From Spartobacteria bacterium (GTDB lineage Bacteria; Verrucomicrobiota; Verrucomicrobiia; Chthoniobacterales; UBA6821): a stretch of 64,000 nucleotides of DNA. Below, one piece after another: positions 11,585 through 54,905 of this stretch. Where the stretch lies: positions 7,894 to 71,893 of the forward strand of contig CANKWU010000007.1 of NCBI GenBank assembly GCA_947487385.1. Reading direction: 5' to 3'. The translations under genes and the position numbers were made by a program. The notes beneath the pieces were generated by a model. That model worked only from the letters and a program-made list of their open reading frames with translations, ran no database searches and was not told the DNA's origin. Each line of letters begins with the position of its first letter. The first letter of the stretch is position 1.

Positions 11585-11591
11585 CAATCCG

Positions 11592-12691: not shown

Positions 12692-12776
12692 TTTCCTCTG
12701 GAAATAATTACTCAAATTCCTCAGGTCAATCTGCAAAGGCGCTGGAAGCTTGGATGAATAACAAGGCGAGAGAGAA

Positions 12777-12795
12777 GCGGTAGTGTTTCTACCGC
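12777..12795 (-). terminator. Possible intrinsic terminator downstream of fabH
   Basis: GCGGTAG-tgttt-CTACCGC 7-bp stem. On the minus strand it is followed by TTCTCTCTCGCCTTGTT, which is T/C-rich and not a clean U-tract. Confidence 0.35.
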
Positions 12796-12848
12796 AAGTG
12801 ATTAGCAACGCCGCCCCGCGCCAAAATCCCAAGCCTTAGCCCAAAGGG

Positions 12849-23857: not shown

Positions 23858-24126
23858 TTCCCCTATGCTATTGGTGAAGTGGCAACCCGTGCAAGAAACC
23901 CCGACAGTGGGAGTTTTAAATATGGTATTGCTTGCGTGCTAAAGCGTCAGGAACTCAAAAAGGGAATCTAGGCAACCGCTGAATCAATCTTAGCGAGGCG
24001 CGCTGCTTGGAATTCTGAAACTAAGGCAAGGTGATTGGGAGGGAGCGTGTGAAAATCTACCCCAACTCCTCTCCTCTCGCCAGCAGTGCACTTTTTGGAC
24101 AGCCTCTTACGGATCAACTTACCCCG

Positions 24127-26736: not shown

Positions 26737-26867
26737 AATTCAGATTAACTCAAAACGCTCCGAGGTCAAGTACTGCTCTCTCAATGTGTCGCAAGCAGAG
26801 GCAAACAGCGCCTGAGCATCCGCTTGGCATTGACCCATGGATAAACTATCACTTGCCTAAGAAGCAA

Positions 26868-36511: not shown

Positions 36512-37099
36512 ATGTTTACTGGACTTATTGAATCTATCGGGACCGTTCGATCGCTCGAGAAGCGCGGCGATGCCGCCCGCGTGGCTCTCGAGACTCCCTT
36601 GGCGATCGACCTCTCTGTAGGTGAAAGCCTGGCCGTCAATGGTTGCTGCCTCACCGTTACGACCAAAGATTCCGCTTCGGCAAGTTTCGATCTCCTGGGG
36701 GAGACCCTTGCACGGACAAATCTCGGTCATCTCGCTGCCGGATCACGGGTGAATCTGGAACGCGCCCTGCGAGCAGACGGCCGTTTCGGAGGACACTTTG
36801 TCCAAGGCCATATCGACACGACGGCCCAGGTCATCTCTGTAGAAAAAAAGAACGGAGATCTCCTTCTTCTGATCGAACTTCCTCCGGCGGGAGCCCCTTA
36901 CTTCATCGAAAAGGGATCAATAGCCGTGAATGGAGTTTCGCTGACCGTCTCCTCTCTCACGAACGATCACTTCGGCCTCTGGATCATACCACACACCCTT
37001 CAAGAAACAAATCTTGGCGATCTTAAGAATGGTGATCTCGTGAACCTCGAGTATGACATGCTCGCGAAATACGCGGCGCGGCAATTGGGTGACAGGTAA
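36512..37099 (+). CDS. ribE: Riboflavin synthase alpha chain
   Basis: MFTGLIESIGTV, with the duplicated lumazine-binding repeats (GESLAVNGCCLTV / GSIAVNGVSLTV). Confidence 0.9.
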   Translation: MFTGLIESIGTVRSLEKRGDAARVALETPLAIDLSVGESLAVNGCCLTVTTKDSASASFDLLGETLARTNLGHLAAGSRVNLERALRADGRFGGHFVQGHIDTTAQVISVEKKNGDLLLLIELPPAGAPYFIEKGSIAVNGVSLTVSSLTNDHFGLWIIPHTLQETNLGDLKNGDLVNLEYDMLAKYAARQLGDR

Positions 37100-40146: not shown

Positions 40147-40872
40147 TTAAGACTTGCCGGAAAAAGGTAATTTACCTCGGACTGCTATTGGAGAACCTTC
40201 GGCAAGAAAAATGGAACTCGGCGGATAAGATAGACTTTCGACAAAAGCATTTCCATAAAGTTTGGAAACGTCTGCGTCTAATTCGTAATCAGTACATTGC
40301 TGAATATTCCAGCGTGGATGTTCCACCTGAAATTCGCAACCTTCCCGAGACTGAGCGTTATAACCCCAGTAGTGCTCAGTAATGAACTCTTCTTCCGAGC
40401 CAACCGCTATTGCCCCTAAAGGACCTACTCCCGTAGCTCGAACTGATTCCCATTGATGATTTCTTTTCCAGGAATATTCAATCCGGACTCCTGATTCGGT
40501 CACACCGATGTGGTGTTTCATCGGCAGAGCTCGATAGGGCTCACCGTAGAAAGTACGTGCAGTAAAGGCAATCGCCCACTTGGGAACCAATTCGCTGACA
40601 AAAACTACTCCCCGTCGCCAGGAATTCTTGATTTTACGCCGAACATAAAATCTTAAATTCACCTCTTCAAAATCTTTGTGAAAGGGAAATGTGAACCCCA
40701 GAACCCGAGTCTTGATGAACCTAAATCCAACGATGCTCAGATACGTTTTATTATCAAAGAAGTCCAACTCAGTACCTGAAGGCACAAGTGGCTTCAGGAC
40801 AGCAGGATCGACCACATAATTAGCCATTAAAAGGTGCCTCCATTCGGCAGTGAGGAATAGGGAAGTTTTCAA
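40147..40872 (-). CDS. DUF2071 (YqjF-like) family protein
   Basis: LFLTAEWRHLLMANYVVDPAVLKPLVPSGTELD matches my recollection of the DUF2071 N-terminus. Confidence 0.6.
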   Translation of the reverse strand: MKTSLFLTAEWRHLLMANYVVDPAVLKPLVPSGTELDFFDNKTYLSIVGFRFIKTRVLGFTFPFHKDFEEVNLRFYVRRKIKNSWRRGVVFVSELVPKWAIAFTARTFYGEPYRALPMKHHIGVTESGVRIEYSWKRNHQWESVRATGVGPLGAIAVGSEEEFITEHYWGYNAQSREGCEFQVEHPRWNIQQCTDYELDADVSKLYGNAFVESLSYPPSSIFLAEGSPIAVRGKLPFSGKS

Positions 40873-40924
40873 GGGCTACCCTTAAGTCCAGTTGAGCGAT
40901 CGTGAGATGTCGATTAAGAGTTTT

Positions 40925-42517
40925 TTAACCTGGAGTGTTAAGCGTAAGCGTCCTTTTAGGATCCTTGTTTAAGGATTTCAGAAAACTCTCTGCCTCGGCG
41001 ACGATTTTGAGACGCTCCTTGGCATCACGTTTTTGCCATGACCGGACAGGCATTGCGGTTCTGGGATTTCGGATCAAGAGCTCCTGATTCGTGTGGAAAA
41101 AATTCCAATAGAGTAGATTCAGCGGGCAGGCCCCTTTACCGCTCTTGATGCTGGGACTGAATGAACAGGTGCTGCAATAGTTGCTCATTTTATTGATGTA
41201 GGCACCACTGGCAGCATAGGGCTTGGTAGCCATGAATCCGCCATCCGCGTGCAAGGCCATTCCAAGAACGTTCGCAGCCATCACCCAATCATGGGCATCG
41301 ACATACATCTCGTTGAACCATCGAAGTGCTTCCTGAGGATTAACTCCTGCCATTAGTAAAAAGTTCCCCAGAACCATGAGCCGCTGGATGTGGTGATTGA
41401 AACCCCGGTCAAGCGTTTCCCGTAGGGCTGTGGACAAACAGTTCATCGAGGTCTCACCGGAGTAGAAGAACTCGGGGAGCGACCGTGTGGCGTTAAGACC
41501 ATTGACCGAGGCGTACTCAGGCATTTTTAGCCAGTAGACACCGTTCACAAACTCACGCCAGCCGATCACTTGCCTGATAAATCCCTCCACGGCATGGAGG
41601 GGTGCCTTCCCTTCTTTGAAGGCCTTCTCTGCCGCCAGAACGCACTCCATTGGTTCGAGTAAGCCGATGTTGAGCATTGGTGAGAGGATGGAATGAAAGA
41701 GATCGCCATCTTCCGACACCATCAAGTCCTGCCAGGTGCCGAATTCCGGCAAGCGAGATTCGATGAATTCGCGCAGAGCTGTAAGAGAATCCACCCTCGT
41801 GACCGGTAATGAAAAGTCAGCGGCTTTTCCCGGTGCATCCGGATAGATCGTTGCCAACTCACGAGCGACTTCCTGTGTGATTTCATCCTGTGGCAGTGGA
41901 TGTGACTTTTTCGGTCGCGGCATACCTGCCTTCTTCCAGTCGGCAAAGGTGGCTCGGTTCTCCTGATCGTAGTTCCACTGCCCGCCGAGTGGCTTGGAGG
42001 CATCATCGGCCTCCATCAGCAGTCCCGTGCGACGACGCATCTCGCGATAAAAGGTCTCCATGAGAAGGCGCTTCTTAACTCCTGCCATCTCTAGAAAATC
42101 TTCCCTGGAGCACAAAAACTGAGTCGTTGGGATGATTGTGAGGGGAACAGGCAACTTGGCTTCTAGGATCTTCAGCGCCAGCTGCTCGTCATAATTATTA
42201 GGCTGGGCAACAAGCAGGGATGCGGGCTTTTGATCCCTACAATGCACTTCTAAAACAGATCGCATATCAGCTGTATTCTCCAACCGGTGATACTCAACTT
42301 CCCACCCTTCTGCTTCCCGTTCCGCCGCGAAGTGTCGCATGGCAGAGAGCAAAAGCATGAGGCGATGACGATGGTAGGGCAACTTGCCGAAGGACTGCCT
42401 CGACTCCACAAAGAGGAGGCGGTCCCTACCCTTTCGGGCCGATGCGATGGCCGCATGATGCTCCGAGAGCTGATCCGGAAGGATCAAAATAGAGTGCTTT
42501 TCAGAAGAAATAGGCAT
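40925..42517 (-). CDS. Fe-S bacterial cryptochrome/photolyase (FeS-BCP, COG3046; (6-4) photolyase-like)
   Basis: It resembles the deoxyribodipyrimidine photolyase-related protein family. One Cys lies in NCLSTALRE, followed by CSTC-x12-C (CSTCSFSPSIKSGKGAC). That reproduces the C..C-x2-C-x12-C 4Fe-4S ligand spacing known for PhrB/CryB. Confidence 0.8.
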   Translation of the reverse strand: MPISSEKHSILILPDQLSEHHAAIASARKGRDRLLFVESRQSFGKLPYHRHRLMLLLSAMRHFAAEREAEGWEVEYHRLENTADMRSVLEVHCRDQKPASLLVAQPNNYDEQLALKILEAKLPVPLTIIPTTQFLCSREDFLEMAGVKKRLLMETFYREMRRRTGLLMEADDASKPLGGQWNYDQENRATFADWKKAGMPRPKKSHPLPQDEITQEVARELATIYPDAPGKAADFSLPVTRVDSLTALREFIESRLPEFGTWQDLMVSEDGDLFHSILSPMLNIGLLEPMECVLAAEKAFKEGKAPLHAVEGFIRQVIGWREFVNGVYWLKMPEYASVNGLNATRSLPEFFYSGETSMNCLSTALRETLDRGFNHHIQRLMVLGNFLLMAGVNPQEALRWFNEMYVDAHDWVMAANVLGMALHADGGFMATKPYAASGAYINKMSNYCSTCSFSPSIKSGKGACPLNLLYWNFFHTNQELLIRNPRTAMPVRSWQKRDAKERLKIVAEAESFLKSLNKDPKRTLTLNTPG

Positions 42518-42664
42518 CGGTGATTAGGAAAAAGTTTACCCCTGCCGTGAGCGATTGCAGATGTAAATAGATGAGTGTTTCGAAAGTTTTTACAATTTTA
42601 GAACCAAAACTTTAGCAAAGTGGCATGAATGACGCCAAATTGACTCCCCTGCTAGAGTTAACCC

Positions 42665-43468
42665 ATGAGCAACACTCTTACGACGACGGAAGCCTATCTT
42701 AATGAAACTCTGCAGTCGGACTTAGAGACCATTGAATTACATCCCATCTTTGGATCCGTTCAATCTGAAGCCCAACTTCGCCTCTTCATGGAAAATCATG
42801 TTTTCCCGGTTTGGGATTTCATGTCTCTGCTGAAGTTTCTGCAGGCCACCCTGGCACCTGCAACCTGGCCTTGGATGCCAAGGCCTCTGGCTCACGGTGA
42901 TCTGGTGCGCTTGATCAACGATATTGTTGTCGCAGAAGAGAGCGATAAACTTCCCAAATCCCATCAAGGAGATTCTTCTCACGCCAGCCATTTTGACCTT
43001 TACCTGATAGCCATGCGTGAGGTCGGAGCCGACACGATGCCGATTACCGAGTTCCTGAGTGTCGTGGCGTCCCGAGGTCTTGATGCGGCTCTGGAGGCAC
43101 CGATGGTTTCTGATGCATCGCGGGCTTTCATGAAGGATACTTTTGCACTCCTTAGAGAGGGTAAACCCCACAAGGTGGCGGCCGCTTTCTCTTTCGGTCG
43201 TGAAAATGTCATCCCAGGCATGTTCACCTCATTGCTCGAGAAACTTGTCATCACTGAAGACCGTGCTCCGATTTTTCATTACTACCTGAAGCGTCACGCC
43301 GAACTCGATGGCGACGAACATGGTCCAGCAGCCCTTCGTTTGGTAGCCACTCTTTGCGGAGATGATCCGGTGAAGCTGGATGAGGCAGTCCATGCTGCCA
43401 AGGCGGCGCTGGCAAGCAGGGGCCGTCTCTGGGATAGCCTTCTAGAGAGACTGCTTTCCGATCACTAG
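42665..43468 (+). CDS. DUF3050 family (heme-oxygenase-like fold) protein
   Basis: IELHPIFGSVQSEAQLRLFMENHVFPVWDFMSLLKFLQ matches my recollection of DUF3050. Confidence 0.65.
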   Translation: MSNTLTTTEAYLNETLQSDLETIELHPIFGSVQSEAQLRLFMENHVFPVWDFMSLLKFLQATLAPATWPWMPRPLAHGDLVRLINDIVVAEESDKLPKSHQGDSSHASHFDLYLIAMREVGADTMPITEFLSVVASRGLDAALEAPMVSDASRAFMKDTFALLREGKPHKVAAAFSFGRENVIPGMFTSLLEKLVITEDRAPIFHYYLKRHAELDGDEHGPAALRLVATLCGDDPVKLDEAVHAAKAALASRGRLWDSLLERLLSDH

Positions 43469-43470
43469 TC

Positions 43471-43638
43471 ATGAGGATCAACGGGAAGGTGGTTAAGAAG
43501 GCCGACTTGCCGGAGAAGATCTGCCTGCACTGCAACCGCCCTTTCGCATGGCGCAAGAAATGGGATCGTGACTGGGAGTCCATCACCTGCTGCAGCGAAG
43601 CCTGCAAGGGAGAGTTAAAGCAAAGCCGTCGCCAGTGA
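43471..43638 (+). CDS. DUF2256 zinc-ribbon protein (55 aa; not in supplied ORF track)
   Basis: My own translation reads MRINGKVVKKADLPEKICLHCNRPFAWRKKWDRDWESITCCSEACKGELKQSRRQ*. The pattern C-x2-C..F.WRKKW...W....CS..C is the DUF2256 signature. The gene sits 2 nt after DUF3050 and 2 nt before the photolyase gene. Confidence 0.8.
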   Translation: MRINGKVVKKADLPEKICLHCNRPFAWRKKWDRDWESITCCSEACKGELKQSRRQ

Positions 43639-43640
43639 TC

Positions 43641-45080
43641 ATGAGTGCTCGGGAGCGGGTTCATCTGGTCTGGCTGAAGCGGGATCTGCGCCTCCACGAT
43701 CATGCCCCACTGGCCGAGGCTTCGCGGCGGTGTGCCGCAGGAGAAAAAGCCCTCGCCCTCTATGTCCACGAGACGGACTACTGGGCTACCGACAAGGCCT
43801 CGCCGGACCAATGGGGATTTGTGGCGGAATGTCTGAGGTACCTTGCGACGAATCTTGAAAAAATTAACTGCCCGCTGCTGATCGCGAAAGCTCCCTCCGC
43901 AGAGATCGTGTTGGAATCGCTCTTTGATCACTATGGGGTTGCGGAACTCCTCTGCCATCAGGAGACGGGCAACGGCTGGACCTTTGAGCGGGATAAGCGT
44001 GTGCATTGGCTTTGCAGAGAACGAGGCATCCCGGTACGGGAATTTCTCCAGAACGCCGTAGTCCGTGGCCGGAACAGACCACCCCAGAAGCCGGAGCATC
44101 AGTCTTTCTGGAGAGAGTGGATTTCGGAAGCGCAAGCCCCGACGCCTCGCTTCTGGAGTGCCCCTTCCACTCTGCCGCCGCAGTTCGTCTCCCCCGATCT
44201 CTCGACACCGGCGAGCGTCACGCGTCAACGTGGCGGCGAGGCTATGGCTCTTGGGCTACTGGAGAGTTTCCTGAATGAGCGTTGTCTTCTGCACGCCGGA
44301 TACCGTGTGGAAATGGGAAGCCCCCTGCATGCCCATGAGGCCTGCTCGCGCCTCTCCCCGCATCTTACCTGGGGGAGTCTCTCCACAAAGCGGGCGTCTC
44401 AGGACTCCATGGCACGAGAGCCGCGCCCACCTCACGGGAGCATGATGCACCGCAACAGCTTCCACCGCCGCCTCCGCTGGAGGGATCACTTTCTACAGAA
44501 ATTCGAGTCCCTGTCATGGATGGAATTCCGCTGCATTAATAGCTCAAGGGAGAGCCTGCACCGATGGGATCAGGCCGCTTACGAGCGCTGGGCCTCGGGC
44601 ATGACGGGCTATCCCTTCATCGATGCCTGTATGCGCTCACTCAATGCCACGAAATGGATCAACTTCCGCGCCCGGGCCATGCTTGTCTCGTTTGCCTCCT
44701 ATGCGCTGAATCTCGATTGGCGGCGATTCGCTCCCCATCTCGCCCGCACATTCCTCGACTACGAACCAGGCATCCATTACAGCCAGATCCAGATGCAGGC
44801 GGGCACCACCTATGGCTCCCCTCCTAGGATCTACAATCCGATGAAGCAGTCTCTGGAGAAGGATCCTGATGGGGAATTTATCCGCCATTGGGTTCCGGAG
44901 CTTCGAGACATTTCAAGCAACGCCATTCATCTTCCCCAAGATGTCAACCGACCGGGCTATCCGGCCGCAATCGTCTCACCAGGATCGCTCTGGCGCGTCA
45001 TGCGATCAAACGGCCCAAAGACTCAGAATCCTAAGACAAAGAAATCTGAGCTTCAGCCGGAGCTATTTCTTCCCGATTGA
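43641..45080 (+). CDS. Cryptochrome/photolyase-family protein (canonical domain order)
   Basis: The N-terminal alpha/beta domain reads VHLVWLKRDLRLHDHAPL. The FAD domain reads TGYPFIDACMRSLNATKWINFRARAMLVSFA...LDYEPGIHYSQIQMQAG...IYNPMKQSLEKDPDGEFIRHWVPEL. The subclass (CPD/DASH) is not assignable by eye. Confidence 0.8.
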   Translation: MSARERVHLVWLKRDLRLHDHAPLAEASRRCAAGEKALALYVHETDYWATDKASPDQWGFVAECLRYLATNLEKINCPLLIAKAPSAEIVLESLFDHYGVAELLCHQETGNGWTFERDKRVHWLCRERGIPVREFLQNAVVRGRNRPPQKPEHQSFWREWISEAQAPTPRFWSAPSTLPPQFVSPDLSTPASVTRQRGGEAMALGLLESFLNERCLLHAGYRVEMGSPLHAHEACSRLSPHLTWGSLSTKRASQDSMAREPRPPHGSMMHRNSFHRRLRWRDHFLQKFESLSWMEFRCINSSRESLHRWDQAAYERWASGMTGYPFIDACMRSLNATKWINFRARAMLVSFASYALNLDWRRFAPHLARTFLDYEPGIHYSQIQMQAGTTYGSPPRIYNPMKQSLEKDPDGEFIRHWVPELRDISSNAIHLPQDVNRPGYPAAIVSPGSLWRVMRSNGPKTQNPKTKKSELQPELFLPD

Positions 45081-45113
45081 TGATTCTTCCAGGCGGGATA
45101 CTCTTTCAGGGAG

Positions 45114-46082
45114 ATGAGCATGGCTTCCCACTGGATCAATGCATGGCGCGGATCCCTAGCTGCCGATGCCCTGGCGATGCCTGTTCATTGGTACTACGAC
45201 ACAGGGGCCCTTCGACGTGAGTATGGTGTCGTCGACCGCTACCTTGAGCCAAAAAATCCCCATTCCGGAAGCATTCTCTGGCGTTCGGAATACCATGCAC
45301 TCAACGAGAAGGGAGATATTCTCCGCGATCAGGCCCGCTACTGGGGAGAGCGCGGGATTCATTATCATCAGTTCCTCAAGGCCGGCGAGAATACACTGAA
45401 TTACCGGCTCGCCCGGGAACTCTTCGCATTCGTGAAGGAAAGAGGTGGTTACGATCCCGATGCCTGGCTTGAGCGCTATATTACTAAAATGCTGGAGCCC
45501 GGATGGCATCGCGACACCTATGTGGAGGAGTATCACCGTGCCTTCTTCACTAGGTACGCGCAGGGTAAGAAGCCAAGAAAATGCGGAATCAGCGATGAGC
45601 ATATCGGGGGGCTAGCCACCGTACCTGCTCTTTGCGCGGCGCTATGCTCCTTGGAACAGGGGATCGAGCTTTCGGAATTGAGGGTGATCGTGAAAGAGCA
45701 TGTCGGGTTAACTCATGCCCATGCCAATGTACTACGTGCAGCAGATACCCTAGTACGCCTTCTCTGGAAGGTAACTGAAGGGATGGAAGTTCACGAGGCG
45801 ATCCGCCTTGAGGGCGGGGACTGGATCTCAGGTAAGAAATCAGATTCATGGCTCCACCAACCTGACGAGTATGTCGTCGGATCCCGCTTCAGCCCCGCCT
45901 GCTACATCGCCGATGCAATGCCTGCATCGCTCTATCTGGTCTGGAAATATTCGCGCGACTTCTCGGCAGGTATTATCGCCAACGCTATGGTCGGAGGTGA
46001 CAGCTGCCACCGCGGGGCCGTGGTAGGCAGCATCCTCGGGGCAGCTAACGGAGTGCCAGAACGGTTTTTGCTCACCCTATAA
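45114..46082 (+). CDS. ADP-ribosylglycohydrolase-family protein
   Basis: LAADALAMPVHWYY lies near the N-terminus and GGDSCHRGAVVGSILGAANG near the C-terminus. These correspond to the two metal-site regions of the ARH/DraG fold. Confidence 0.7.
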   Translation: MSMASHWINAWRGSLAADALAMPVHWYYDTGALRREYGVVDRYLEPKNPHSGSILWRSEYHALNEKGDILRDQARYWGERGIHYHQFLKAGENTLNYRLARELFAFVKERGGYDPDAWLERYITKMLEPGWHRDTYVEEYHRAFFTRYAQGKKPRKCGISDEHIGGLATVPALCAALCSLEQGIELSELRVIVKEHVGLTHAHANVLRAADTLVRLLWKVTEGMEVHEAIRLEGGDWISGKKSDSWLHQPDEYVVGSRFSPACYIADAMPASLYLVWKYSRDFSAGIIANAMVGGDSCHRGAVVGSILGAANGVPERFLLTL

Positions 46083-46100
46083 TTCGGAATTATTGATTCA

Positions 46101-47303
46101 ATGAATCCAACGCGTGAGGAGGGACTGCAAACGCTCGAGCGTTTTTTACCCCATGCCGGTATCAGCTATAGAGAGAGGCGTAATTTTGTCCCCGGAGTTG
46201 TTTCGGGGCTTTCCCCCTACGTGCGTCACCGGTTGATCACGGAAGCTGAAGTCGTCGGAGCAGTTCTTCAAAAGCATTCTTTTCAAGAAGCCGAGAAATT
46301 CATCCAGGAAATCTGCTGGCGTACCTATTGGAAGGGATGGCTGGAGATGAGGCCCTCGGTTTGGTCGGAGTATCTTGAGGCACTTCAAACGCTTAAAATC
46401 CAAATGCAAGAGGAGCCTGATGTGAATGATCGAGTCCAATCAGCCGAAAGTGGTGTTACAGGGATTGGTTGCTTTGATGACTGGGCCAACGCACTCCGTG
46501 AGACCGGATATCTTCACAACCATGTCAGGATGTGGTTTGCGAGCATCTGGGTTCATACGCTGCGTCTGCCATGGCAACTGGGAGCTGACTTCTTTATGAG
46601 GCACCTGCTGGACGGAGACCCAGCTTCCAATACCCTCTCGTGGCGCTGGGTCTGCGGACTGCAGACGCAGGGAAAGGTCTATGTGGCGACTGCCGAGAAT
46701 ATCGAGCGCTTCACGGATGGGCGTTATACTCCGCGCGGGCTTCTGGCTCAGGAAGCTCCGATGATGAGGGAGTCTTTCACAAATCACCCGCCACTCCCAC
46801 TGGCTCATCCCGATCAGCATGTTTCGGGTGAAAAAACTCTTCTGCTCATCACTGAGGAGGATCTCCACCCGGAGGATTGGGGTATTCCTCGTAGCGATGT
46901 GTTGGGAATCGTTCTTCTCGATTCGGCTGAGGCATATCCCGGGATCGCAGCGCTCCCCGTGGGATGGAAGAGCCACGCGCTCGAGGGAGCTGCCGCACGA
47001 TTGGCCGGTGAATTTCAGTGCCCTATCACGTGCCTCCAGAGTGATAAGGAATCACTATCCGCTAAACTGCGCACCCTTCTGCAGGAGTATGGAGCAGGCT
47101 GCTACAGCACCATGACTCCTCCCGTTGGCCCGACACTCAGCCTCATTGATCCGGTGCTTTCGGAACTGGTGAAGGAGGGTGTTACTGTCAGAAGACTGCG
47201 GCGTTCTTGGGATGACGCATTCTGGCCGCACGCGACCCATGGGTTTTTTAAGTTGAAGGAGCGGATTCCATCCGTTCTGAAGCAGCTGTCATTGATCCCT
47301 TGA
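46101..47303 (+). CDS. Photolyase-like protein with FAD-binding domain at the N-terminus (possible permuted CPF)
   Basis: LSPYVRHRLIT, TGYLHNHVRMWFASIW and LLDGDPASNTLSWRWVCG all lie in the first ~200 aa. The C-terminal ~185 aa read like a photolyase alpha/beta domain (KTLLLITEEDLHPEDW...). Confidence 0.65.
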   Translation: MNPTREEGLQTLERFLPHAGISYRERRNFVPGVVSGLSPYVRHRLITEAEVVGAVLQKHSFQEAEKFIQEICWRTYWKGWLEMRPSVWSEYLEALQTLKIQMQEEPDVNDRVQSAESGVTGIGCFDDWANALRETGYLHNHVRMWFASIWVHTLRLPWQLGADFFMRHLLDGDPASNTLSWRWVCGLQTQGKVYVATAENIERFTDGRYTPRGLLAQEAPMMRESFTNHPPLPLAHPDQHVSGEKTLLLITEEDLHPEDWGIPRSDVLGIVLLDSAEAYPGIAALPVGWKSHALEGAAARLAGEFQCPITCLQSDKESLSAKLRTLLQEYGAGCYSTMTPPVGPTLSLIDPVLSELVKEGVTVRRLRRSWDDAFWPHATHGFFKLKERIPSVLKQLSLIP

Positions 47304-47339
47304 TCAATGACTTATCGGCGAGACTCCCGTAGCGTTCTA

Positions 47340-47588
47340 TCACTCCAAGTCCTCATGATTCGAGGGCTTCAAACGGCGCTCCAGAAGCTTCCGGTGTTTT
47401 GTCACCCGGCCGCCAACTCGTTTTCTCCACATGGTAAAACTGGATGGCTTAAGTTCGCGGCGCATGATGTCGATCACCTCATGCTCTGCAAGACCAGTGC
47501 GTGTTTTTATTTCCTCAAACGTGGTTCGATCTTCCCACGCCAGACGAATCACCAAAGAAATCTGATCGCTTTGAATTTTTCCCTTCAT
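47340..47588 (-). CDS. TIGR03643/DUF2805 family small protein (photolyase-associated)
   Basis: RLAWEDRTTFEEIKTRTGLAEHEVIDIMRRELKPSSFTMWRKRVGGRVTKH matches the family consensus as I recall it. Confidence 0.7.
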   Translation of the reverse strand: MKGKIQSDQISLVIRLAWEDRTTFEEIKTRTGLAEHEVIDIMRRELKPSSFTMWRKRVGGRVTKHRKLLERRLKPSNHEDLE

Positions 47589-47597
47589 GGCGTGTGA

Positions 47598-48224
47598 TCA
47601 TCGGATCCCAATGAATTTACGGAAGGTGAGGTTGATCCGGGGCGTAGAGATTTTCTTGGTCTTGGGCATGGTATGCTCCCAGTGATGCTGGGTGGCTCCC
47701 TTCATCACCAGCAGGCTGCCATCTTCAAGAAGCACGGAAACGACCTCCTTGGACTTGCGGTGTTTCAGTTTAAAGATCCTTTCCGCCCCAAGGCTCACGG
47801 AGGCAATGAGAGGATTCTCGCCTAGGGTCTTTTCATCATCGCTGTGCCATCCCATTCCCTCGGAGCCGTCATGGTAAAGATTCAGCAGGCAAGAGTTGAA
47901 CTGGTGGCCGCACTCGCTCTCGACGCGCTCCTTGATCGTCACAAGAGCAGGGGTCCATGGTGCCGCGACTTTGCTTGTGCCGGAATAGGAGTAGGTGAAC
48001 TCTCCATCCCCCATCCAGGCCACTTTCCGGGAGAGGATCCTTTTCTGTCCAAAGAGGATCACCTCGTCCTGCTGCCAAGGGATCCCTGTTAGGAGCTCTT
48101 CAAAAAGACGGGACGACTCCCCCGCCCCAAAGAGCGAGGGGACATATTCGACGATCCCATCATAAGGAAGATAAGGAAGAAGTTGCCCGTTATTCACTGG
48201 CACAGAGGCCCCTGCTGGAGTCAC
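47598..48224 (-). CDS. alkB: Alpha-ketoglutarate/Fe(II)-dependent dioxygenase AlkB
   Basis: NLYHDGSEGMGWHSDDE (HxD), QHHWEH (distal His) and RINLTFRK (2OG Arg). Confidence 0.85.
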   Translation of the reverse strand: MTPAGASVPVNNGQLLPYLPYDGIVEYVPSLFGAGESSRLFEELLTGIPWQQDEVILFGQKRILSRKVAWMGDGEFTYSYSGTSKVAAPWTPALVTIKERVESECGHQFNSCLLNLYHDGSEGMGWHSDDEKTLGENPLIASVSLGAERIFKLKHRKSKEVVSVLLEDGSLLVMKGATQHHWEHTMPKTKKISTPRINLTFRKFIGIR

Positions 48225-48348: not shown

Positions 48349-49560
48349 TTAGTCTAGGCTGGAGAGACGATCCTGCAGCGGTGAGATGGGATGGAAAACA
48401 GCCGTCTTGGTTGGGGAAAGGGAGATGTCGGTGGCGTTGAGTCGTTCAACCTTGGATAAGATGTCGCGTACCTCTGCAAGAGTTGCCAAGGAGGCTAGGA
48501 ATGAATCGGCACGCCGCGTCCAGAGCCTATTCAGTGTTGGCCAGACAAAGAGGGCCAAAAAGCACCATGTCGTCATAACGGCTGCTCCGCATAGCCCTGC
48601 CTGCACCGGATTTATGCTTGGCAGAAGAGATGCCGCTAAAATTCCCAGCAATGTCCAAACCGCCACGATGACCAGGATTAGGATCCACGCTCCCGATCTG
48701 CGGTAATATTCCTCACGGGCTACAAGAAGGGCAGCCTCACGCGGGGTGAGCCATTGCGCGACTGTGGTCGAGAGGGAAAGGACTCCCCGGGGGGAGATGC
48801 AACCGTTCACCGTTTCTTCATCGCCATGATCGAACCAGCGAACTGGTCTCAAGGTGATCTTCAGCGGTTTCAGCTCGAACTCAAGATTCTCCTCAAAAGC
48901 TTTCTCTAAAGAGCCTGCATCAGATGGACGGCCAGCAGGGACAAACAGAAAAAGGATCAAAATGAACGCTCCCGCGGCGAGCAGCATCGGCACAGCCCAT
49001 TGCCGAGGAACTTGATGAAACGCGGCGAAGAAAAGAAACCCAGTCCAGAGCCCCGCTAACGTGAGCAACCGGTTTCGCACCCAATCCTTCAGCCAACCAG
49101 TTTCATATTCCACGATACGATTCGCCGCACTTTCCAGGGCGCTGCCCATTAGAAGGTCAAAAGGGAGGTTCGCCAGAGTTATCAGCAGCGCCACCGAAAG
49201 TAAAACCGCCGGGACCGCTACTGGACCGGAGAGGCCACTTGCCCACCACGATGCACTGAGGGCAAGCCCCCAGATCAGCGCAAGATTGGCTCCGATCGAT
49301 GTGATGCCCGCCCAAAGACGAACGCGCTGGTAGTTACTAGGATCCACCGTGGTAGTTTGTGCAATAGAAAAGGCCGGGTCAATGACCCGGTCGCCGTCGG
49401 TTCGCTGCTTTGAAAAGACCCTCTTAACCCTGGAGAGGCAGTCGTGCGTCACTATGATAGCTCCTGCGTTGGAGGTTGTTGGATGTTTCGAATCTTTATT
49501 AGCCCAAGTATCCCAACTCTCCTCCACATGAACAACCTCCAGAAACTTCACACCTAACAC
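48349..49560 (-). CDS. Polytopic membrane protein, M48/M56-peptidase-like but lacking HExxH
   Basis: Multiple TMs. LTPREAALLVAREEYYRRSG occupies the position and context of the ...E..AVLAHElgH... zinc motif, and the C-terminus FHPISPLQDRL resembles the HPP...R tail of M48 peptidases. The true start is uncertain. Confidence 0.45.
   Translation of the reverse strand: MLGVKFLEVVHVEESWDTWANKDSKHPTTSNAGAIIVTHDCLSRVKRVFSKQRTDGDRVIDPAFSIAQTTTVDPSNYQRVRLWAGITSIGANLALIWGLALSASWWASGLSGPVAVPAVLLSVALLITLANLPFDLLMGSALESAANRIVEYETGWLKDWVRNRLLTLAGLWTGFLFFAAFHQVPRQWAVPMLLAAGAFILILFLFVPAGRPSDAGSLEKAFEENLEFELKPLKITLRPVRWFDHGDEETVNGCISPRGVLSLSTTVAQWLTPREAALLVAREEYYRRSGAWILILVIVAVWTLLGILAASLLPSINPVQAGLCGAAVMTTWCFLALFVWPTLNRLWTRRADSFLASLATLAEVRDILSKVERLNATDISLSPTKTAVFHPISPLQDRLSSLD
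49268..49390. repeat. Left copy of a 123-bp diverged direct repeat (within the 5' part of the membrane-protein gene)
   Basis: It matches 54542..54664. The first 29 bp are identical, then 72 of 94 match with no indels (manual count). Confidence 0.85.
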
Positions 49561-49682
49561 TCTGGTTGAAACGTTACCCTTACACTGTCTTAAACATTAG
49601 TGACTCCACAGGTTCTCCATTCTTAGATATGGCTGTCTCAATAAGATTTCTTTTGATAAGGAATCCCTGCCTACCAACCTTT

Positions 49683-51227
49683 ATGAAGATCGCATTATTC
49701 CCTGCGCGAATCCTTTTCGCCATTCTTGGACTGCTCATCACCGCACACTCAACGCACGCGGCCGATAAACAGAAAAAGCCCAACATTCTCATCATCTGGG
49801 GTGATGACATCGGTCAGTTCAATCTCAGTGCAGTTAACCGCGGCATGATGGGCTACCGCACACCGAATATCGACCGTATCGCCAGCGAGGGTGCTTATTT
49901 TACCGATTGGTATGGCCAGCAATCCTGCACGGCAGGACGCGCAGCCTTTATCACAGGCCAGTCACCGATCCGCACCGGCCTCACCAAAGTGGGTCTTCCA
50001 GGTGCCCCTGAAGGGATGAAAAAAGAGGATCCCACCATCGCGACCCTTCTTAGAGCGCAGGGCTATGTCACGGGCCAGTTCGGTAAGAATCACCTCGGGG
50101 ATCGGGACGACATGCTGCCGACCAGTAATGGATTTGATGAGTTTTTTGGGAATCTCTATCACCTGAATGCCGAGGAGGAGCCTGAAAACCCCGACTATCC
50201 GAAGAGTCCCGAGTTCAAAAAGAAGTTCGCCCCACGCGGCGTGATTCACAGTTATGCCGACGGCCGCATCAAGGACACAGGCCCACTGAACAAAAAACGC
50301 ATGGAGACGATTGACGACGAGGTCAACGAAAAGACCTTCGCCTTCATGGAGCGTGCGGTGAAGGAGGGTAAGCCTTTCTTTCTTTGGTGGAACTCAACAC
50401 GTATGCACATCTTCACGCACTTGAAGAAGGAGTCCGATGGCAAGACGGGACTCGGCATTTATGCGGATGGTATGGTTGAGCACGACGCCCATGTCGCTCA
50501 GTTGCTTGCTAAACTCAAGGAGCTTGGTCTTGAGGAGAACACCATCGTGATGTACTCCAGCGACAATGGTGCCGAGTCCTTCACCTGGCCAGATGGAGGT
50601 ACCACCATGTTCCGTGGGGAGAAAAACACTCAGTGGGAGGGAGGATATCGCGTGCCGACTTTCATCCGCTGGCCTGGGGTCATTAAGCCCGGCACCGTGA
50701 TTAACGATATCGGGTCCCATGAAGACATGTTGCCCACACTGCTTGCCGCTGCGGGAGAACCAGCTGTAAAGGAAGAGTTGCTCAAGGGAATGAAGGTTGC
50801 AGACACCACTTACAAAGTGCACTTGGATGGCAATAACCTCCTACCATCACTAAAAGGAGAGGCGCCGTGGCCTCGCAAGGAATTCATCTATTGGACCGAT
50901 GACGGTAGCGTTGCGGCCCTTCGGTACGATAACTGGAAGATCACCTTCCTGAAACAAAATGCCCACGGCATGAATGTCTGGCTTCATCCGTTTGAGGCGC
51001 TTAGGGCGCCAATGGTCACCAACCTTCGCATGGACCCCTTCGAACTCGCTCCGGACATTGGCATGGGTTACCAACGCTGGTATCTAGAGCACATGTTTGT
51101 TATCGCACCCGCCGCAAATTATGTGGGGGGATGGTTGCAGAGTTTCCGTGAGTTCCCTCCACGTCAAAAGCCCGGCAGCTTCAATCTTGATCGTGTGATG
51201 GAGTCCGTAACCTCGGCGAATGAGTAA
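49683..51227 (+). CDS. Arylsulfatase (Cys-type, formylglycine-dependent)
   Basis: The signal peptide starts at ATG 49683. PNILIIWGDDIG and the FGly motif SCTAGRAAFITG (C-x-A-x-R) are present, with GKNHLG as the sulfatase signature 2. Confidence 0.9.
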   Translation: MKIALFPARILFAILGLLITAHSTHAADKQKKPNILIIWGDDIGQFNLSAVNRGMMGYRTPNIDRIASEGAYFTDWYGQQSCTAGRAAFITGQSPIRTGLTKVGLPGAPEGMKKEDPTIATLLRAQGYVTGQFGKNHLGDRDDMLPTSNGFDEFFGNLYHLNAEEEPENPDYPKSPEFKKKFAPRGVIHSYADGRIKDTGPLNKKRMETIDDEVNEKTFAFMERAVKEGKPFFLWWNSTRMHIFTHLKKESDGKTGLGIYADGMVEHDAHVAQLLAKLKELGLEENTIVMYSSDNGAESFTWPDGGTTMFRGEKNTQWEGGYRVPTFIRWPGVIKPGTVINDIGSHEDMLPTLLAAAGEPAVKEELLKGMKVADTTYKVHLDGNNLLPSLKGEAPWPRKEFIYWTDDGSVAALRYDNWKITFLKQNAHGMNVWLHPFEALRAPMVTNLRMDPFELAPDIGMGYQRWYLEHMFVIAPAANYVGGWLQSFREFPPRQKPGSFNLDRVMESVTSANE

Positions 51228-51242
51228 GGGAGAAGACTCACG

Positions 51243-52226
51243 GTGATCCACCGCAACCTCTGTACGCTGGCATGCATTCTCTGGTCTGCGCTGGCGACCC
51301 ATGCGAGCGAGCCCCTGCCATCATGGAACGATAGTTCCTCGAGGAGGGCGATCCTCTCCTTTGTGGCGAAAGTCACCGATAAATCGGGAGGCAGTTTTGT
51401 GCCCCCCGCCCAGAGGATCGCCGTATTCGACAACGACGGGACACTCTGGCCAGAAAACCCGATTCCATTTCAGATGTCATTCACCATTGAGGAGATAAAA
51501 CGACAGCTCCCTCAGCACCCCGAATGGAAGTCCGATAAGGATATTCAGGCTGCTCTTTCGGGTGACTTCCCCCCTCTTCTTCGAGACCATTTCAGGGGAC
51601 TGTTACACATCATCTCTGTTGCAGGCTCCGGCATGACTACCGACGAGTTTGCTGCAAGCGTCCGTCGTTGGTTTGCCTCTGCCAAGCATCCACGATTTAA
51701 CAAGGCTTACGACGGCCTTGCGTACCAACCCATGCAGGAGTTATTGGCCTACCTGAGAGCCAATGGATTCAAAAACTACATTGTTTCCGGCGGAGGGTTG
51801 GATTTCATGCGCGCCTTCAGTGAGCGAGTTTACGGCGTTGTGCCGGAACAGGTCGTGGGATCCCACACTGCTGTCGTCTATGAATTGAGGGATAGCGGTC
51901 CCGTACTGGTCAAAACCATGAACCGTCTCTTTGTGGATGACGGCGCCGCCAAGCCAGAGGCCATTCATCAATTCATCGGACGCCGGCCTATTGCTGCCTT
52001 TGGCAATAGCGACGGAGATAAAGAGATGCTGGAATACACCACTATCGGGAATCCTCTCCCATCCCTCGGCCTGCTTATCCACCACACCGATAAGGAGAGG
52101 GAGTATGCCTATGACGCCAAGCCACAGAGCAGTGGAAAACTTATTACCGCTCTAGCAGAGGCCCCCCAGCGCGGCTGGGTTGTGACTGATATGAAAAAGG
52201 ACTGGCGGTTGATCTTTTCGGAGTAG
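51243..52226 (+). CDS. Secreted HAD-superfamily hydrolase/phosphatase
   Basis: GTG start and signal peptide. HAD motif I is VFDNDGTLW and motif IV-like is FGNSDGDKEM. Confidence 0.65.
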   Translation: MIHRNLCTLACILWSALATHASEPLPSWNDSSSRRAILSFVAKVTDKSGGSFVPPAQRIAVFDNDGTLWPENPIPFQMSFTIEEIKRQLPQHPEWKSDKDIQAALSGDFPPLLRDHFRGLLHIISVAGSGMTTDEFAASVRRWFASAKHPRFNKAYDGLAYQPMQELLAYLRANGFKNYIVSGGGLDFMRAFSERVYGVVPEQVVGSHTAVVYELRDSGPVLVKTMNRLFVDDGAAKPEAIHQFIGRRPIAAFGNSDGDKEMLEYTTIGNPLPSLGLLIHHTDKEREYAYDAKPQSSGKLITALAEAPQRGWVVTDMKKDWRLIFSE

Positions 52227-52253
52227 TGTGTGCATCGTTCCACTGCTGAAAAT

Positions 52254-53492
52254 ATGAGATCCATCCCGTTTTTATTATTACTCGGCTTACCTGTTCTATC
52301 TGCTCAGGTGGCCCCTCAGTCCAATTACGAAGTGCTTGAGCCAGTTCCTGCAGCAAACTTCATCCCTGCTGTCCTGATGACGAATACACACTGCACCGTC
52401 GCACCTATGGCGCAGACCGATGGCCTCCACCTTACCTATACTCTTCAGAGTCCTGCTGGCACTGAATCAATCGTCGGCACACAGAGCCTCATCACACGCG
52501 TCACCGAGATGAAAGCACTCGTAGCACTTGATGAAATCGATAATTCGGAGGAGTTTGGAAAGGCGCTGCTCAAGGCGGGTGCCGAAAAAGTCGGGAGCGT
52601 GAGGGATGTCGTGAAGGATCCACTTGGAACCGTCCAACGCCTCCCCCTCGGAGCCTCCCGACTCTTGGGACGCGTCTCCACCTCTGTTAAAAATGCTGCT
52701 GAAGGGAATGCCGATCCGCGCGCTGGAGCACAGCAAGTTCTGGGAGTCAGGAGAATGAAGAACGAGTTGGCCGCTCGTTTCGGAGTCAGCCCCTACTCAC
52801 GGAATGCCTTGCTTCAGAATAAGCTGGATGCCACTGCTCGGGCGATGGCGGGCGGCGCTCTCGTCGTGAACCTCTCAGGTCTCATGTTCACTGGAGGAGT
52901 TGGCACTGCCATTTCCGTAGTTGGCGTAAATCAGACACTTCAGCGCACGCTCATTGAGTCGACACCCGAGGAAATGGCAGTCAAGAACCGTGCTATACTT
53001 CTGGCGCTCAAGGCCGCTCCCGATGCGGTGGAAGGCTTTCTCTCAAATCCCTCCCTCTCACCTTGGCAGAAGACGATTCTCACTGCCGAACTGAAGGATA
53101 TTGGTCTGAATCCAGATCCCTTTCTTAGGCTTGCATCGAAGCCCGCAACCCAAGAGGAGGTTCTTGATGAGATGCAGATCATGCAAATTTTACTCAAACA
53201 CCATAAAGAGATCGCCCCCATTGTCTCCATTATCTCCATAAGTGAGGTCGCCGGCGCGCTTGCCGCACTAGATGCAAACGGCACCTTGGTCACACCAGTT
53301 AGCGCAGATCTTATTCTCTGGAGTGCAACGAAAGAGTCTGGTGCCGATGCGCTCCTGAAAATGGCAAAGGAAGATCCGAGGGTAAAACACGTGACTCTTG
53401 TCACAGATGGTCTCGTCTCGGCCCGTGCCATGGAGGAATTCGACAAACGGGGAATCTTCGCAACCCCCCAAGCTCTCGGACCCCTACGCTAA
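52254..53492 (+). CDS. Hypothetical secreted protein
   Basis: ATG 52254 gives the signal peptide MRSIPFLLLLGLPVLSAQ. No family recognised. Confidence 0.5.
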   Translation: MRSIPFLLLLGLPVLSAQVAPQSNYEVLEPVPAANFIPAVLMTNTHCTVAPMAQTDGLHLTYTLQSPAGTESIVGTQSLITRVTEMKALVALDEIDNSEEFGKALLKAGAEKVGSVRDVVKDPLGTVQRLPLGASRLLGRVSTSVKNAAEGNADPRAGAQQVLGVRRMKNELAARFGVSPYSRNALLQNKLDATARAMAGGALVVNLSGLMFTGGVGTAISVVGVNQTLQRTLIESTPEEMAVKNRAILLALKAAPDAVEGFLSNPSLSPWQKTILTAELKDIGLNPDPFLRLASKPATQEEVLDEMQIMQILLKHHKEIAPIVSIISISEVAGALAALDANGTLVTPVSADLILWSATKESGADALLKMAKEDPRVKHVTLVTDGLVSARAMEEFDKRGIFATPQALGPLR

Positions 53493-53503
53493 CTAGCTTC
53501 AGA

Positions 53504-54604
53504 ATGATTCGCTCCTTGCGGTTCTCAATGCTGGGGGTGCTTTTATTGCTGGGATGTCATCCCTCTGCACCATCCAGCGGTATGGTTTTGATCCCCGGTG
53601 GTGACTTCTTGATGGGCTCAGACGCTCCGTATGCTTTACCCAACGAGAGACCGGCTCATCAGGTGAAGGTAAAGCCCTTCTTCATGGACATTCATGCGGT
53701 CACCAATGCCGAATTTGCAAAATTCGTGAAAACCACCGGCTATATCACCGTTGGAGAGCGACCCGTCGATTGGGAGGAATTAAAAAAACAAGTGCCACCA
53801 GAAACGCCTAAGCCACCCGCCGAGACCCTTGCGCCTGGGTCGTTGGTTTTTCATCCAACCACGGGGCCTGTTGATTTACGTGATATGTCTGCGTGGTGGC
53901 AATGGCTCAATGGCGCCTCGTGGTCTCATCCAGAGGGACCCGACAGCAATATCATCGGCAGGGAAAACCACCCAGTGGTGCACATTGCTTGGGAGGATGC
54001 AAAAGCCTATGCGGCTTGGGCTGGGAAACGCCTCCCCACCGAGGCTGAATGGGAATTTGCAGCCAGGGGCGGAGTCAACGGAGAGCGCTACGCATGGGGT
54101 AACCAAGAGAGTCCTGACGGGCGTTTTATGCTGAATCGTTGGACCGGACAATTTCCCTACCACGATGATGCCTCGGATGGTTTTGCCGGCACCTCGCCAG
54201 TCGGCACTTTCCCATCAAATAGCTTCGGGCTTTATGACATGGGAGGCAATGTGTGGAACTGGTGCAGCGATATCTATCGCGCCGATGCCTTTGCTGAGGA
54301 GGCCAAAGCCGGCCTTGTTTGTTGTGACCCCACCGGGCCCAAAACCTTACAGGGTGAGAAAGCCGTTCTAGGTGACCCTTCCCCACCCATGGTTCCAGGA
54401 GCAGAACGAAGAGTGACCAAAGGAGGGTCTTTTCTCTGCCATCCCGACTACTGCGAAAGCTATCGCCCCTCCGCAAGACGTGGCACTCCACCTGACACGG
54501 GGAGTAGCCATGTTGGCTTTCGCTGCGCCAAGGATGCGAGTCCCCAGATCAGCGCAAGATTGGCTCCGATGGAGGTGATGCCAGACCAGAGGCGGGCGCG
54601 TTGA
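53504..54604 (+). CDS. Formylglycine-generating enzyme (SUMF1/FGE family sulfatase maturase)
   Basis: HPVVHIAWEDAKAYAAWAGKRLPTEAEWEFAARGG, RVTKGGSFLC and GFRCA. The last ~22 codons run into the right repeat copy. Confidence 0.9.
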   Translation: MIRSLRFSMLGVLLLLGCHPSAPSSGMVLIPGGDFLMGSDAPYALPNERPAHQVKVKPFFMDIHAVTNAEFAKFVKTTGYITVGERPVDWEELKKQVPPETPKPPAETLAPGSLVFHPTTGPVDLRDMSAWWQWLNGASWSHPEGPDSNIIGRENHPVVHIAWEDAKAYAAWAGKRLPTEAEWEFAARGGVNGERYAWGNQESPDGRFMLNRWTGQFPYHDDASDGFAGTSPVGTFPSNSFGLYDMGGNVWNWCSDIYRADAFAEEAKAGLVCCDPTGPKTLQGEKAVLGDPSPPMVPGAERRVTKGGSFLCHPDYCESYRPSARRGTPPDTGSSHVGFRCAKDASPQISARLAPMEVMPDQRRAR

Positions 54605-54664
54605 TAGTTGACTGGATCCACCGGGATAGTTTGTAAAAAAGAGAAGGCCAGGTCATTGACCCGG
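54542..54664 (-). pseudogene. Orphan fragment homologous to the 5' region of the 48349..49560 gene (right copy of the direct repeat)
   Basis: The minus-strand translation is RVNDLAFSFLQTIPVDPVNYQRARLWSGITSIGANLALIWG. The intact gene reads RVIDPAFSIAQTTTVDPSNYQRVRLWAGITSIGANLALIWG. No downstream continuation exists. Confidence 0.75.
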
Positions 54665-54701
54665 CCTTCTTCGTGAATTTGCGCTCTGGGAGAGCTGAAG
54701 A

Positions 54702-54905
54702 CTATTTTCCCTCGGCGTACCGCGCAAGACGGTTGGAGAGAATCAGGAAGGTCGGGGCCCAGAGGCCGACGAAGATCCCGAAGAGTTCGCCATGGGTACG
54801 AACCTCAAAGCTCACATCCTTGCCGCCGGCATAATACCAGATGGCGATGGAGGCGAGGACTGAGGCGAGTCCTAGAACGAAACAGAGGTGACTGAGTTGT
54901 TTCAT
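54702..54905 (-). CDS. Small two-TM membrane protein
   Basis: 67 aa with two hydrophobic helices (LCFVLGLASVLASIAIWYY; LFGIFVGLWAPTFLILS). No family recognised. Confidence 0.45.
   Translation of the reverse strand: MKQLSHLCFVLGLASVLASIAIWYYAGGKDVSFEVRTHGELFGIFVGLWAPTFLILSNRLARYAEGK

Follow-up and report, generated by a model that had tools for sequence, protein, structure and literature searches.

Gene content and organization of the locus

We examined a 64,000-nucleotide stretch of metagenome-assembled DNA from a Spartobacteria bacterium (contig CANKWU010000007.1), hereafter the window, in which an earlier note made from the sequence alone had pointed to a dense cluster of light- and DNA-damage-related genes at positions 40147 to 48224. 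Hidden Markov model (HMM) scans against Pfam and NCBIfam, together with independent gene calls, bore out eight family assignments at the coordinates given for them, and the motif-based calls hold. The concentration of cryptochrome/photolyase-family (CPF) genes is genuine, with three of them within 6.4 kb. We counted nine genes at the locus instead of the ten announced. A DUF2071 gene and a gene of the FeS-BCP class (PhrB-type (6-4) photolyase) occupy the minus strand on the left. A plus-strand operon follows, encoding a DUF3050 protein, a DUF2256 protein, a CPF assigned to the NewCRY subfamily, an ADP-ribosylglycohydrolase-family (ARH) protein and a putative short photolyase of the NewPHL/SPL class. 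A minus-strand pair, composed of an AlkB-like dioxygenase gene and a TIGR03643 (DUF2805) gene, closes the cluster on the right.

The gaps of 2, 2, 33 and 18 nt reported between the plus-strand genes are correct, with ATG starts in the open reading frame (ORF) map. The AlkB-like and TIGR03643 genes had been taken for a convergent pair; TIGR03643 in fact lies on the minus strand, the same strand as the AlkB-like gene and 9 nt downstream of it, and the pair is therefore tandem. It is this unit as a whole that converges on the plus-strand operon, across a 36-nt gap. A plus-strand ORF at 47307-47597 was rejected as the TIGR03643 gene, as it is without a family match and the true gene lies on the opposite strand. 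The window matches, without differences, a portion of a metagenome scaffold of 228 kb. At least four metagenome samples (L001-L004) gave independent assemblies with the identical gene arrangement, and the named relatives of the window proteins are from Verrucomicrobiota (Akkermansiaceae, Luteolibacter, Chthoniobacterales and 'Spartobacteria').

The three CPF genes

The minus-strand gene at 40925-42517 encodes a 530-aa protein that aligned over residues 10-517 with PhrB of A. tumefaciens (4dja, 443 bits) and also matched CryB of R. sphaeroides (3zxs, 409 bits). Its N-terminal domain belongs to PF04244 (DPRP, 207 bits). The FeS-BCP call had been made from a C...CxxC-x12-C signature, and all four cluster cysteines of PhrB (C350, C438, C441 and C454) are indeed matched by cysteines in the window protein, with the CxxC-x12-C spacing kept. 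This protein is predicted to carry out blue-light repair of (6-4) photoproducts via FADH-. A riboflavin synthase gene (ribE, 228 bits) is located at 36512-37099 on the plus strand, 3.8 kb upstream of the FeS-BCP gene, with a MacB/ABC/HlyD transporter between the two. The antenna of FeS-BCP relatives is 6,7-dimethyl-8-ribityllumazine, the substrate of RibE.

The gene at 46101-47303 (plus strand) encodes a 400-aa protein that had been described as a CPF with its FAD domain first. FAD_binding_7 is N-terminal (residues 67-195), the Pfam scan returned no match to the PF00875 antenna domain, and residues 8-194 correspond to positions 208-396 of NF007955, the E. coli-type photolyase model, which has 472 positions. 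Alignment to E. coli photolyase (1dnp) revealed equivalents of E274, W277, N341, M345, N378, W359, W382 and W384; the W306 position is occupied by Met, leaving a Trp dyad (W359, W382) instead of a triad. Short photolyases of the SPL class carry a C-terminal Z-domain of ~150 aa with conserved Trp and a GFF motif (PMC7736829, PMC8476157). In the window protein, ~200 residues follow the FAD domain; they include Trp370, Trp375 and the GFF motif (381-383). The C...CxxC-x5-C cysteines of the iron-sulfur SPL subgroups C and Ac are missing from it. Judged by all sequence criteria of the class, the 400-aa protein is a predicted NewPHL/SPL, NewPHL (Emmerich et al. 2020, PMC7736829) being the same class as SPL according to Xu et al. 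2021 (PMC8476157). It would repair cyclobutane pyrimidine dimers (CPDs) in single-stranded DNA by analogy with two characterised members, the enzymes of D. shibae and M. mesophilicum, which are the only ones for which this restricted activity is known (PMC7736829). The NewPHL gene of the related genome L015 is split into two ORFs (12482-12898 and 12926-13699), reflecting a frameshift or pseudogene or else an assembly error.

The third CPF, a 479-aa protein encoded at 43641-45080 (plus strand), had been called canonical. This stands for its domain order (Pfam DNA_photolyase followed by FAD_binding_7) and not for its pocket, which resembles that of NewCRY/VcCry2 rather than that of a photolyase. 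Relative to E. coli photolyase, it carries the replacements E274R, N341F, M345A, N378H, W382I and W384M. Assignment as a class I CPD photolyase or as a DASH cryptochrome was rejected on the strength of these pocket replacements and of scores far below the NCBIfam cutoffs (141 bits vs 506 and 145 bits vs 317, respectively), as with every NCBIfam photolyase and DASH model. Across an alignment of 24 homologues reaching down to 42% identity, R277, F342, A346 and H379 are invariant and M385 nearly so, and the replacement residues sit within the motifs RLRWRDHF and FLDYEPGIHYSQLQMQ. The resulting set (R277, F342, A346, H379, Y380 and Q382/384/386) takes the place of E274, N341, M345, N378 and the Trp residues; the protein keeps D372 and SRLS, the motif that binds the FAD phosphate. 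The lesion pocket and the FAD-proximal positions have thus been exchanged for a different, strongly conserved set. Since the replacement residues are nearly invariant, they point to a conserved alternative function or pocket rather than to decay, and their nature makes a role as a CPD photolyase unlikely. Emmerich et al. defined NewCRY as two-domain CPFs without the equivalents of E. coli CPD photolyase E274 and N341, with VcCry2 as an example (PMC7736829), and the 479-aa protein has the two domains and has lost both residues. Xu et al. described a 'DASH-like', prokaryote-specific group that is probably equivalent to NewCRY. The 479-aa protein would fulfil some other conserved light-dependent role.

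Conserved companions of NewCRY genes

A NewCRY alignment was searched against one genome per species, yielding 80 loci from 80 species distributed among Alpha-, Beta- and Gammaproteobacteria, Verrucomicrobiota, Cyanobacteriota, Bacteroidota, Chloroflexota, Acidobacteriota, Planctomycetota, Myxococcota, Actinomycetota and Armatimonadota. The window proteins and iterated HMMs then served as queries against the six-frame ORFs at each locus. FeS-BCP was found at 15 of the 80 loci and NewPHL at 10, and all three CPFs occurred together within 10 kb at five (L015, L016, L017, L058 and L079). Published work already reports species that have NewPHL together with FeS-BCP, and with NewCRY/DASH-like proteins (PMC7736829, PMC8476157).

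DUF2256 was present at 31 loci, in 26 of them within 300 nt of a CPF gene and nearly always on the same strand; its usual position overlaps or lies within ~20 nt of the same-strand CPF gene. DUF2805 (TIGR03643) was found at 10 loci, 7 times within 300 nt of a CPF gene. When only the 48 loci with flanks of 3 kb or more on either side were considered, 28 carried one or more of DUF2256, DUF2805, FeS-BCP and NewPHL. In Pelagimonas, these genes are arranged in the order FeS-BCP, DUF2256, NewPHL, DUF2805 and NewCRY. Loci with DUF2256 or TIGR03643 span Proteobacteria, Verrucomicrobiota, Bacteroidota, Chloroflexota, Cyanobacteriota and Acidobacteriota, and the two families, which the earlier note had described as associated with photolyases, are real CPF companions across phyla. 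Such wide co-occurrence holds for these two accessory families but not for the others: DUF2071 was found at none of the 80 loci, DUF3050 and ARH each at three, in Verrucomicrobial relatives only, and the AlkB-like gene also at three, two of them Verrucomicrobial (L013 and L014) and one elsewhere (L087), 3.7 kb from a CPF gene.

De novo clustering of neighbouring genes, from which clusters 1-4 were discarded as alternative-frame shadows, recovered a short-chain dehydrogenase/reductase (SDR) in 12 loci and an amine-oxidase-like FAD oxidoreductase in 11, two kinds of enzymes that are typical of blue-light/singlet-oxygen regulons. The amine-oxidase-like gene lies between the AlkB-like gene and DUF2805 in L013 (16938-17975, minus strand) and L014 (14725-15768, minus strand). 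No SDR, amine-oxidase or cfa gene was found at the window copy.

The window DUF2256 gene (43471-43638, plus strand, 55 aa) is separated by 2 nt from either neighbour, and its product scored 68 bits against a cutoff of 25 (PF10013). It displays the motif C-x2-C...WRKKW...CS-x2-C followed by a basic tail, and the cysteines are conserved in an alignment of 38 copies. The family belongs to the TRASH zinc-finger clan (PMC4047054). Gene callers missed this gene on all four contigs L001-L004 and called it in L009/L010. DUF2256 would be made together with NewCRY and could be its partner, for instance as a tether to nucleic acid or protein.

TIGR03643/DUF2805 is encoded at 47340-47588 on the minus strand (82 aa; TIGR03643, 98.1 bits vs a cutoff of 66.55; PF10985, 95 bits). 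The family alignment revealed a helix-turn-helix (HTH)-like core, FEEIK..GLSE..VI..MRR, and a basic tail. A single-sequence structural model (predicted local distance difference test, pLDDT, of 76) is all-helical, with five helices, and although its Foldseek matches are non-significant (E >= 0.35), most of the top ones are HTH-type DNA-binding proteins or regulators. DUF2805 might therefore be viewed, tentatively, as an HTH-like DNA-binding accessory or regulator.

In the literature searched, we found no paper linking DUF2256, TIGR03643, ARH or DUF2071 to photolyases, nor a description of NewCRY coupling to DUF2256 or, in Verrucomicrobia, to a HamA-like oxygenase.

Lineage-level additions

The first gene of the plus-strand operon (42665-43468) encodes a 267-aa DUF3050 protein (PF11251, 277 bits). 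The statement that no accessory family at the locus has an established function is outdated for this one: HamA (PDB 9vwb) is a haem-oxygenase-like, mononuclear-iron, 2-oxoglutarate (2OG)-binding N-oxygenase of fragin biosynthesis (PMC12522199). The window protein scored 197 bits against the HamA structure, with H40, E84, H96, R167, H199, E206 and R240 conserved; E184 of the HamA paper had no clean mapping onto it. From these residues, the window DUF3050 protein is probably an active oxygenase. No nonribosomal peptide synthetase (NRPS) gene, AurF-like gene or other ham, pvf or mgo gene was found within 10 kb of it, suggesting that valine tethered to a carrier protein is not available as the substrate.

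The order DUF3050-DUF2256-NewCRY is syntenic in five related Verrucomicrobial genomes, namely the window, L009, L013, L014 and L015. Elsewhere, DUF3050 homologues were found away from CPF genes, in L093 at 62% identity and in L094-L096 at 53-57%. In view of these contexts and of its presence at only three of the 80 loci, DUF3050 was rejected as a general photolyase partner outside Verrucomicrobia. In L094-L096, the DUF3050 genes (7001-7846/7897) end strings of PAS histidine-kinase/response-regulator genes, a layout that recalls a haem oxygenase gene beside a bacteriophytochrome gene. The HamA-like iron oxygenase heading the DUF2256-NewCRY operon would thus be an addition made in related Verrucomicrobia only.

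The gene at 47598-48224 (minus strand) had been called AlkB. Membership of the AlkB superfamily of Fe(II)/2OG dioxygenases stands (PF13532, 2OG-FeII_Oxy_2, 133 bits), but the 208-aa protein is of the ALKBH2/ALKBH3 type and not an orthologue of E. coli AlkB. It scored 124 bits against human ALKBH3, 121 against ALKBH2 and 22 against E. coli AlkB, and its HxD (WHSDD), distal His and RxNxTxR (RINLTFR) motifs align with those of ALKBH3. Assignment as an E. coli-type AlkB was also rejected by the NCBIfam equivalogs (38.9 bits vs 267 and 38.7 vs 231).

Next to it, a gene at 48349-49560 on the minus strand encodes a 403-aa protein without any Pfam or NCBIfam match. Copies that are 64-70% identical lie beside the AlkB-like gene, in syntenic position on its upstream side, in L009, L013 and L014, and the gene may be the first of the minus-strand unit. 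The L009 copy gave a weak Peptidase_M48_N match. Residues 44-92 of the window protein have a second copy, 61% identical, ~5 kb away (54559-54714, minus strand). The unit formed by the 403-aa protein, the ALKBH2/3-like dioxygenase and TIGR03643 would be another addition confined to related Verrucomicrobia.

The ARH and DUF2071 genes

The ARH gene (45114/45120-46082, plus strand) encodes a protein of 320-322 aa that matched PF03747 (132 bits), scored 33.5 bits against a cutoff of 337 for the DraG equivalog, and has no sequence relative in PDB. A search of representative sequences indicated a small subfamily, with 129 representatives at E<=1e-30. Orthologues of 73-75% identity occur alone in unrelated contexts (L007 and L008). 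In L011 and L012, an ARH gene of 77% identity ends a TetR-ABC1(UbiB)-ARH unit in which it overlaps ABC1 by 4 nt, with no CPF gene nearby. These contexts ruled out ARH as a conserved photolyase partner.

A DoxX-TetR-ABC1-ARH block stands between NewCRY and NewPHL in L009/L010 and, as detected by tblastn, in L013/L014; in the window and in L015, ARH is all that persists of this block. Furthermore, L009/L010 keep DUF3050-DUF2256-NewCRY as well as ARH-NewPHL/DUF2805-AlkB-like without FeS-BCP or DUF2071. The simplest history is that a TetR-ABC1-ARH unit was inserted between two CPF genes and then lost its first genes. Because ARH is elsewhere the terminal gene of such a unit, we consider it a passenger at the window, probably a remnant of TetR-ABC1(UbiB)-ARH. 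The unit made of TetR, an ABC1/UbiB kinase and ARH is itself conserved (L009, 7934-10972; L011, 7825-10963; L013 and L014), which, together with the 4-nt overlap between the kinase and hydrolase genes, suggests that the hydrolase works with the atypical kinase.

DUF2071, which has an acetoacetate-decarboxylase (ADC)-like fold, is encoded at 40147-40872 on the minus strand (PF09844, 203 bits; gene call in L001), downstream of the FeS-BCP gene and on the same strand; gene callers place its start at 40827, giving 226 aa. The family is related to the acetoacetate-decarboxylase fold without its catalytic lysine (PMC4520260). The gene is missing beside the FeS-BCP gene of L015, and we read it as a species-specific neighbour.

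Regulation and surroundings

The 147-bp divergent intergenic region at 42518-42664 contains a block of ~75 bp (~42583-42660), just upstream of DUF3050, that is conserved with L015 only and not with L009, L013 or L014. It is a candidate promoter/operator of the plus-strand operon. Beyond this block shared by the window and L015, no operator common to the five related loci was found upstream of DUF3050. Promoter, terminator and Rfam scans of the 39.9-48.5 kb interval revealed no sigma-70 consensus site, clear terminator or Rfam match, and among the genes annotated in 1-57.3 kb of the window, none encodes an obvious light or damage regulator, whether of the MerR/LitR, the ChrR/ECF sigma or another type. 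In V. cholerae, the operons that carry all three of its CPF genes, including cry2, are strongly induced by blue light via ChrR and MerR (PMC5241685), and Emmerich et al. placed cry2 in NewCRY (PMC7736829).

Several genes of the surroundings were also recorded. Two tandem paralogous genes encode dCache-sensor/SpoIIE (PP2C) phosphatases (24031-26244 and 26784-29411, both plus strand), the second with an extra HATPase_c_2 anti-sigma-kinase-like domain. A MutS gene (20508-23000, minus strand), adjoined by chromate transporter and ThiG genes, lies ~17 kb away from the island. A plus-strand block at 49566-54604, immediately downstream of the cluster, encodes a sulfatase, a HAD hydrolase, a protein of unknown family and an FGE-sulfatase (formylglycine-generating enzyme). 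At ~11357-11978 (plus strand), a gene for a MazE-like antitoxin precedes a small gene with a Fic domain.

Interpretation of the locus

We regard the locus as probably a modular photoreactivation/light-stress island and not one co-evolved nine-gene system. A core conserved across phyla would comprise FeS-BCP, NewPHL, NewCRY, DUF2256 and TIGR03643/DUF2805, to which related Verrucomicrobia would have added further genes, and the passengers would be the ARH remnant inserted between NewCRY and NewPHL and DUF2071 as a species-specific neighbour. The recurrence of FeS-BCP, NewCRY and NewPHL as a set in 5 of the 80 surveyed species indicates that their clustering is not due to chance. The source is a metagenome-assembled scaffold, which could be taken to favour chance juxtaposition or an assembly artefact; given the independent assemblies, the presence of the arrangement in the more distant genome L015 and the recurrent clustering of CPF genes across phyla, we attach next to no probability to this explanation.

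The earlier note had treated all the genes as a single functional unit. Were all nine one light/DNA-damage system, DUF3050 would serve, for example, in cofactor or antenna synthesis and ARH in de-ADP-ribosylation of DNA or proteins. The very tight spacing of the plus-strand genes is in keeping with such a system, as are the adjacencies ARH-NewPHL and DUF3050-DUF2256-NewCRY in five related genomes and the probable activity of DUF3050, which has the iron and 2OG ligands of HamA; furthermore, the ALKBH3-like dioxygenase and NewPHL both suggest single-stranded nucleic-acid substrates (PMC7736829). However, ARH orthologues of 73-77% identity sit in unrelated contexts or in TetR-ABC1-ARH units and DUF3050 homologues of 53-62% identity lie away from CPF genes, DUF2071 is never found at the surveyed loci, DUF3050, ARH and the AlkB-like gene are all Verrucomicrobial in their few occurrences except for L087, and the literature searched offers no link of ARH or DUF2071 to photolyases. 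A nine-gene system is therefore improbable. We give about the same low weight to the proposal that NewCRY and DUF2256, possibly with TIGR03643, form a photoreceptor-effector module controlling transcription within the island, signalling instead of repairing. NewCRY is without the repair residues, and Emmerich et al. deemed only signalling feasible for the subfamily (PMC7736829); the zinc finger and basic tail of DUF2256, the HTH-like core of DUF2805 and the lack of another regulator gene in the annotated part of the window fit as well. Yet the triple cry1 cry2 phr knockout of V. cholerae has the same blue-light-regulated gene set as the wild type, control being exerted by ChrR and MerR (PMC5241685), the related loci share no conserved operator beyond that of L015, and structural matches argue only weakly for DNA binding. 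As the V. cholerae CPFs are dispensable for the blue-light response, an effector role is favoured over a regulatory one for NewCRY.

A number of points weigh against the modular island. The NewCRY-anchored survey measures the probability of finding a partner given NewCRY, not that of finding a CPF gene given DUF2256 or DUF2805, and its counts are lower bounds because many loci are on short contigs. The 479-aa protein was assigned to NewCRY by the residue definition of the subfamily; the HTH reading of DUF2805 comes from one single-sequence model and non-significant fold matches; and operon structure and light induction were deduced from gene spacing and from V. cholerae. Moreover, ARH lies directly upstream of NewPHL in five related genomes (the window, L009, L013, L014 and L015) and may be co-transcribed with it, so that a local functional tie between the two is conceivable, and DUF3050, syntenic in all of these genomes, may have a functional link to its neighbours within the lineage.

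Within the modular island, we put forward, with considerable reserve, a bolder possibility: NewCRY and DUF2256 could constitute a widespread light-dependent system whose conserved non-photolyase pocket would act on a substrate other than CPDs or (6-4) photoproducts or serve in signalling, with TIGR03643 as a DNA-binding third component and the HamA-like oxygenase recruited in Verrucomicrobia.

All three CPF classes and the clustering of photolyase genes are already known, and so is the operon link between SPL and FeS-BCP, published by Xu et al. 2021 (PMC8476157). The value of our analysis is to sort real companions (DUF2256 and TIGR03643) from lineage additions (DUF3050, the ALKBH2/3-like dioxygenase and the 403-aa protein) and from passengers (ARH and DUF2071). 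DUF2256 and TIGR03643 deserve to be tested as partners of NewCRY/VcCry2 proteins, and ARH and DUF2071 are unsuited for inferring photolyase-related functions. The coupling of NewCRY to DUF2256 provides an experimental handle on the role of repair-site-deficient bacterial cryptochromes.

Comparison with known systems

The window FeS-BCP resembles PhrB and CryB over its full length, in its DPRP N-terminus and in its four [4Fe-4S] cysteines, with no notable difference at the sequence level; the adjoining DUF2071 gene is not a usual neighbour of this class. Likewise, the 400-aa protein shares with NewPHL/SPL the missing antenna domain, the catalytic-domain-first order, the CPD-site residues, the Trp dyad and the GFF-containing Z-domain, and differs in coming from Verrucomicrobiota, outside the five named SPL subgroups. 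DUF3050 belongs to the same Pfam family as the diazeniumdiolate-pathway N-oxygenases HamA, PvfA and MgoB and shares the iron and 2OG ligands of HamA. Human ALKBH2 and ALKBH3 and similar bacterial AlkB homologues are the best structural-database relatives of the AlkB-like protein, which keeps their catalytic motifs, whereas the pairing of its gene with TIGR03643 is confined to this lineage.

Comparison with V. cholerae bears on the island as a whole. Other NewCRY loci carry the SDR and amine-oxidase-like FAD oxidoreductase neighbours of V. cholerae-type regulons, and the window copy has none. The window NewCRY resembles VcCry2 as a two-domain CPF that was annotated as a photolyase, is without E274 and N341 and co-occurs with NewPHL and FeS-BCP. 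Furthermore, as in the blue-light/singlet-oxygen operons controlled in V. cholerae by ChrR-SigmaE and MerR (PMC5241685), the CPF genes of the window are grouped with small hypothetical genes.

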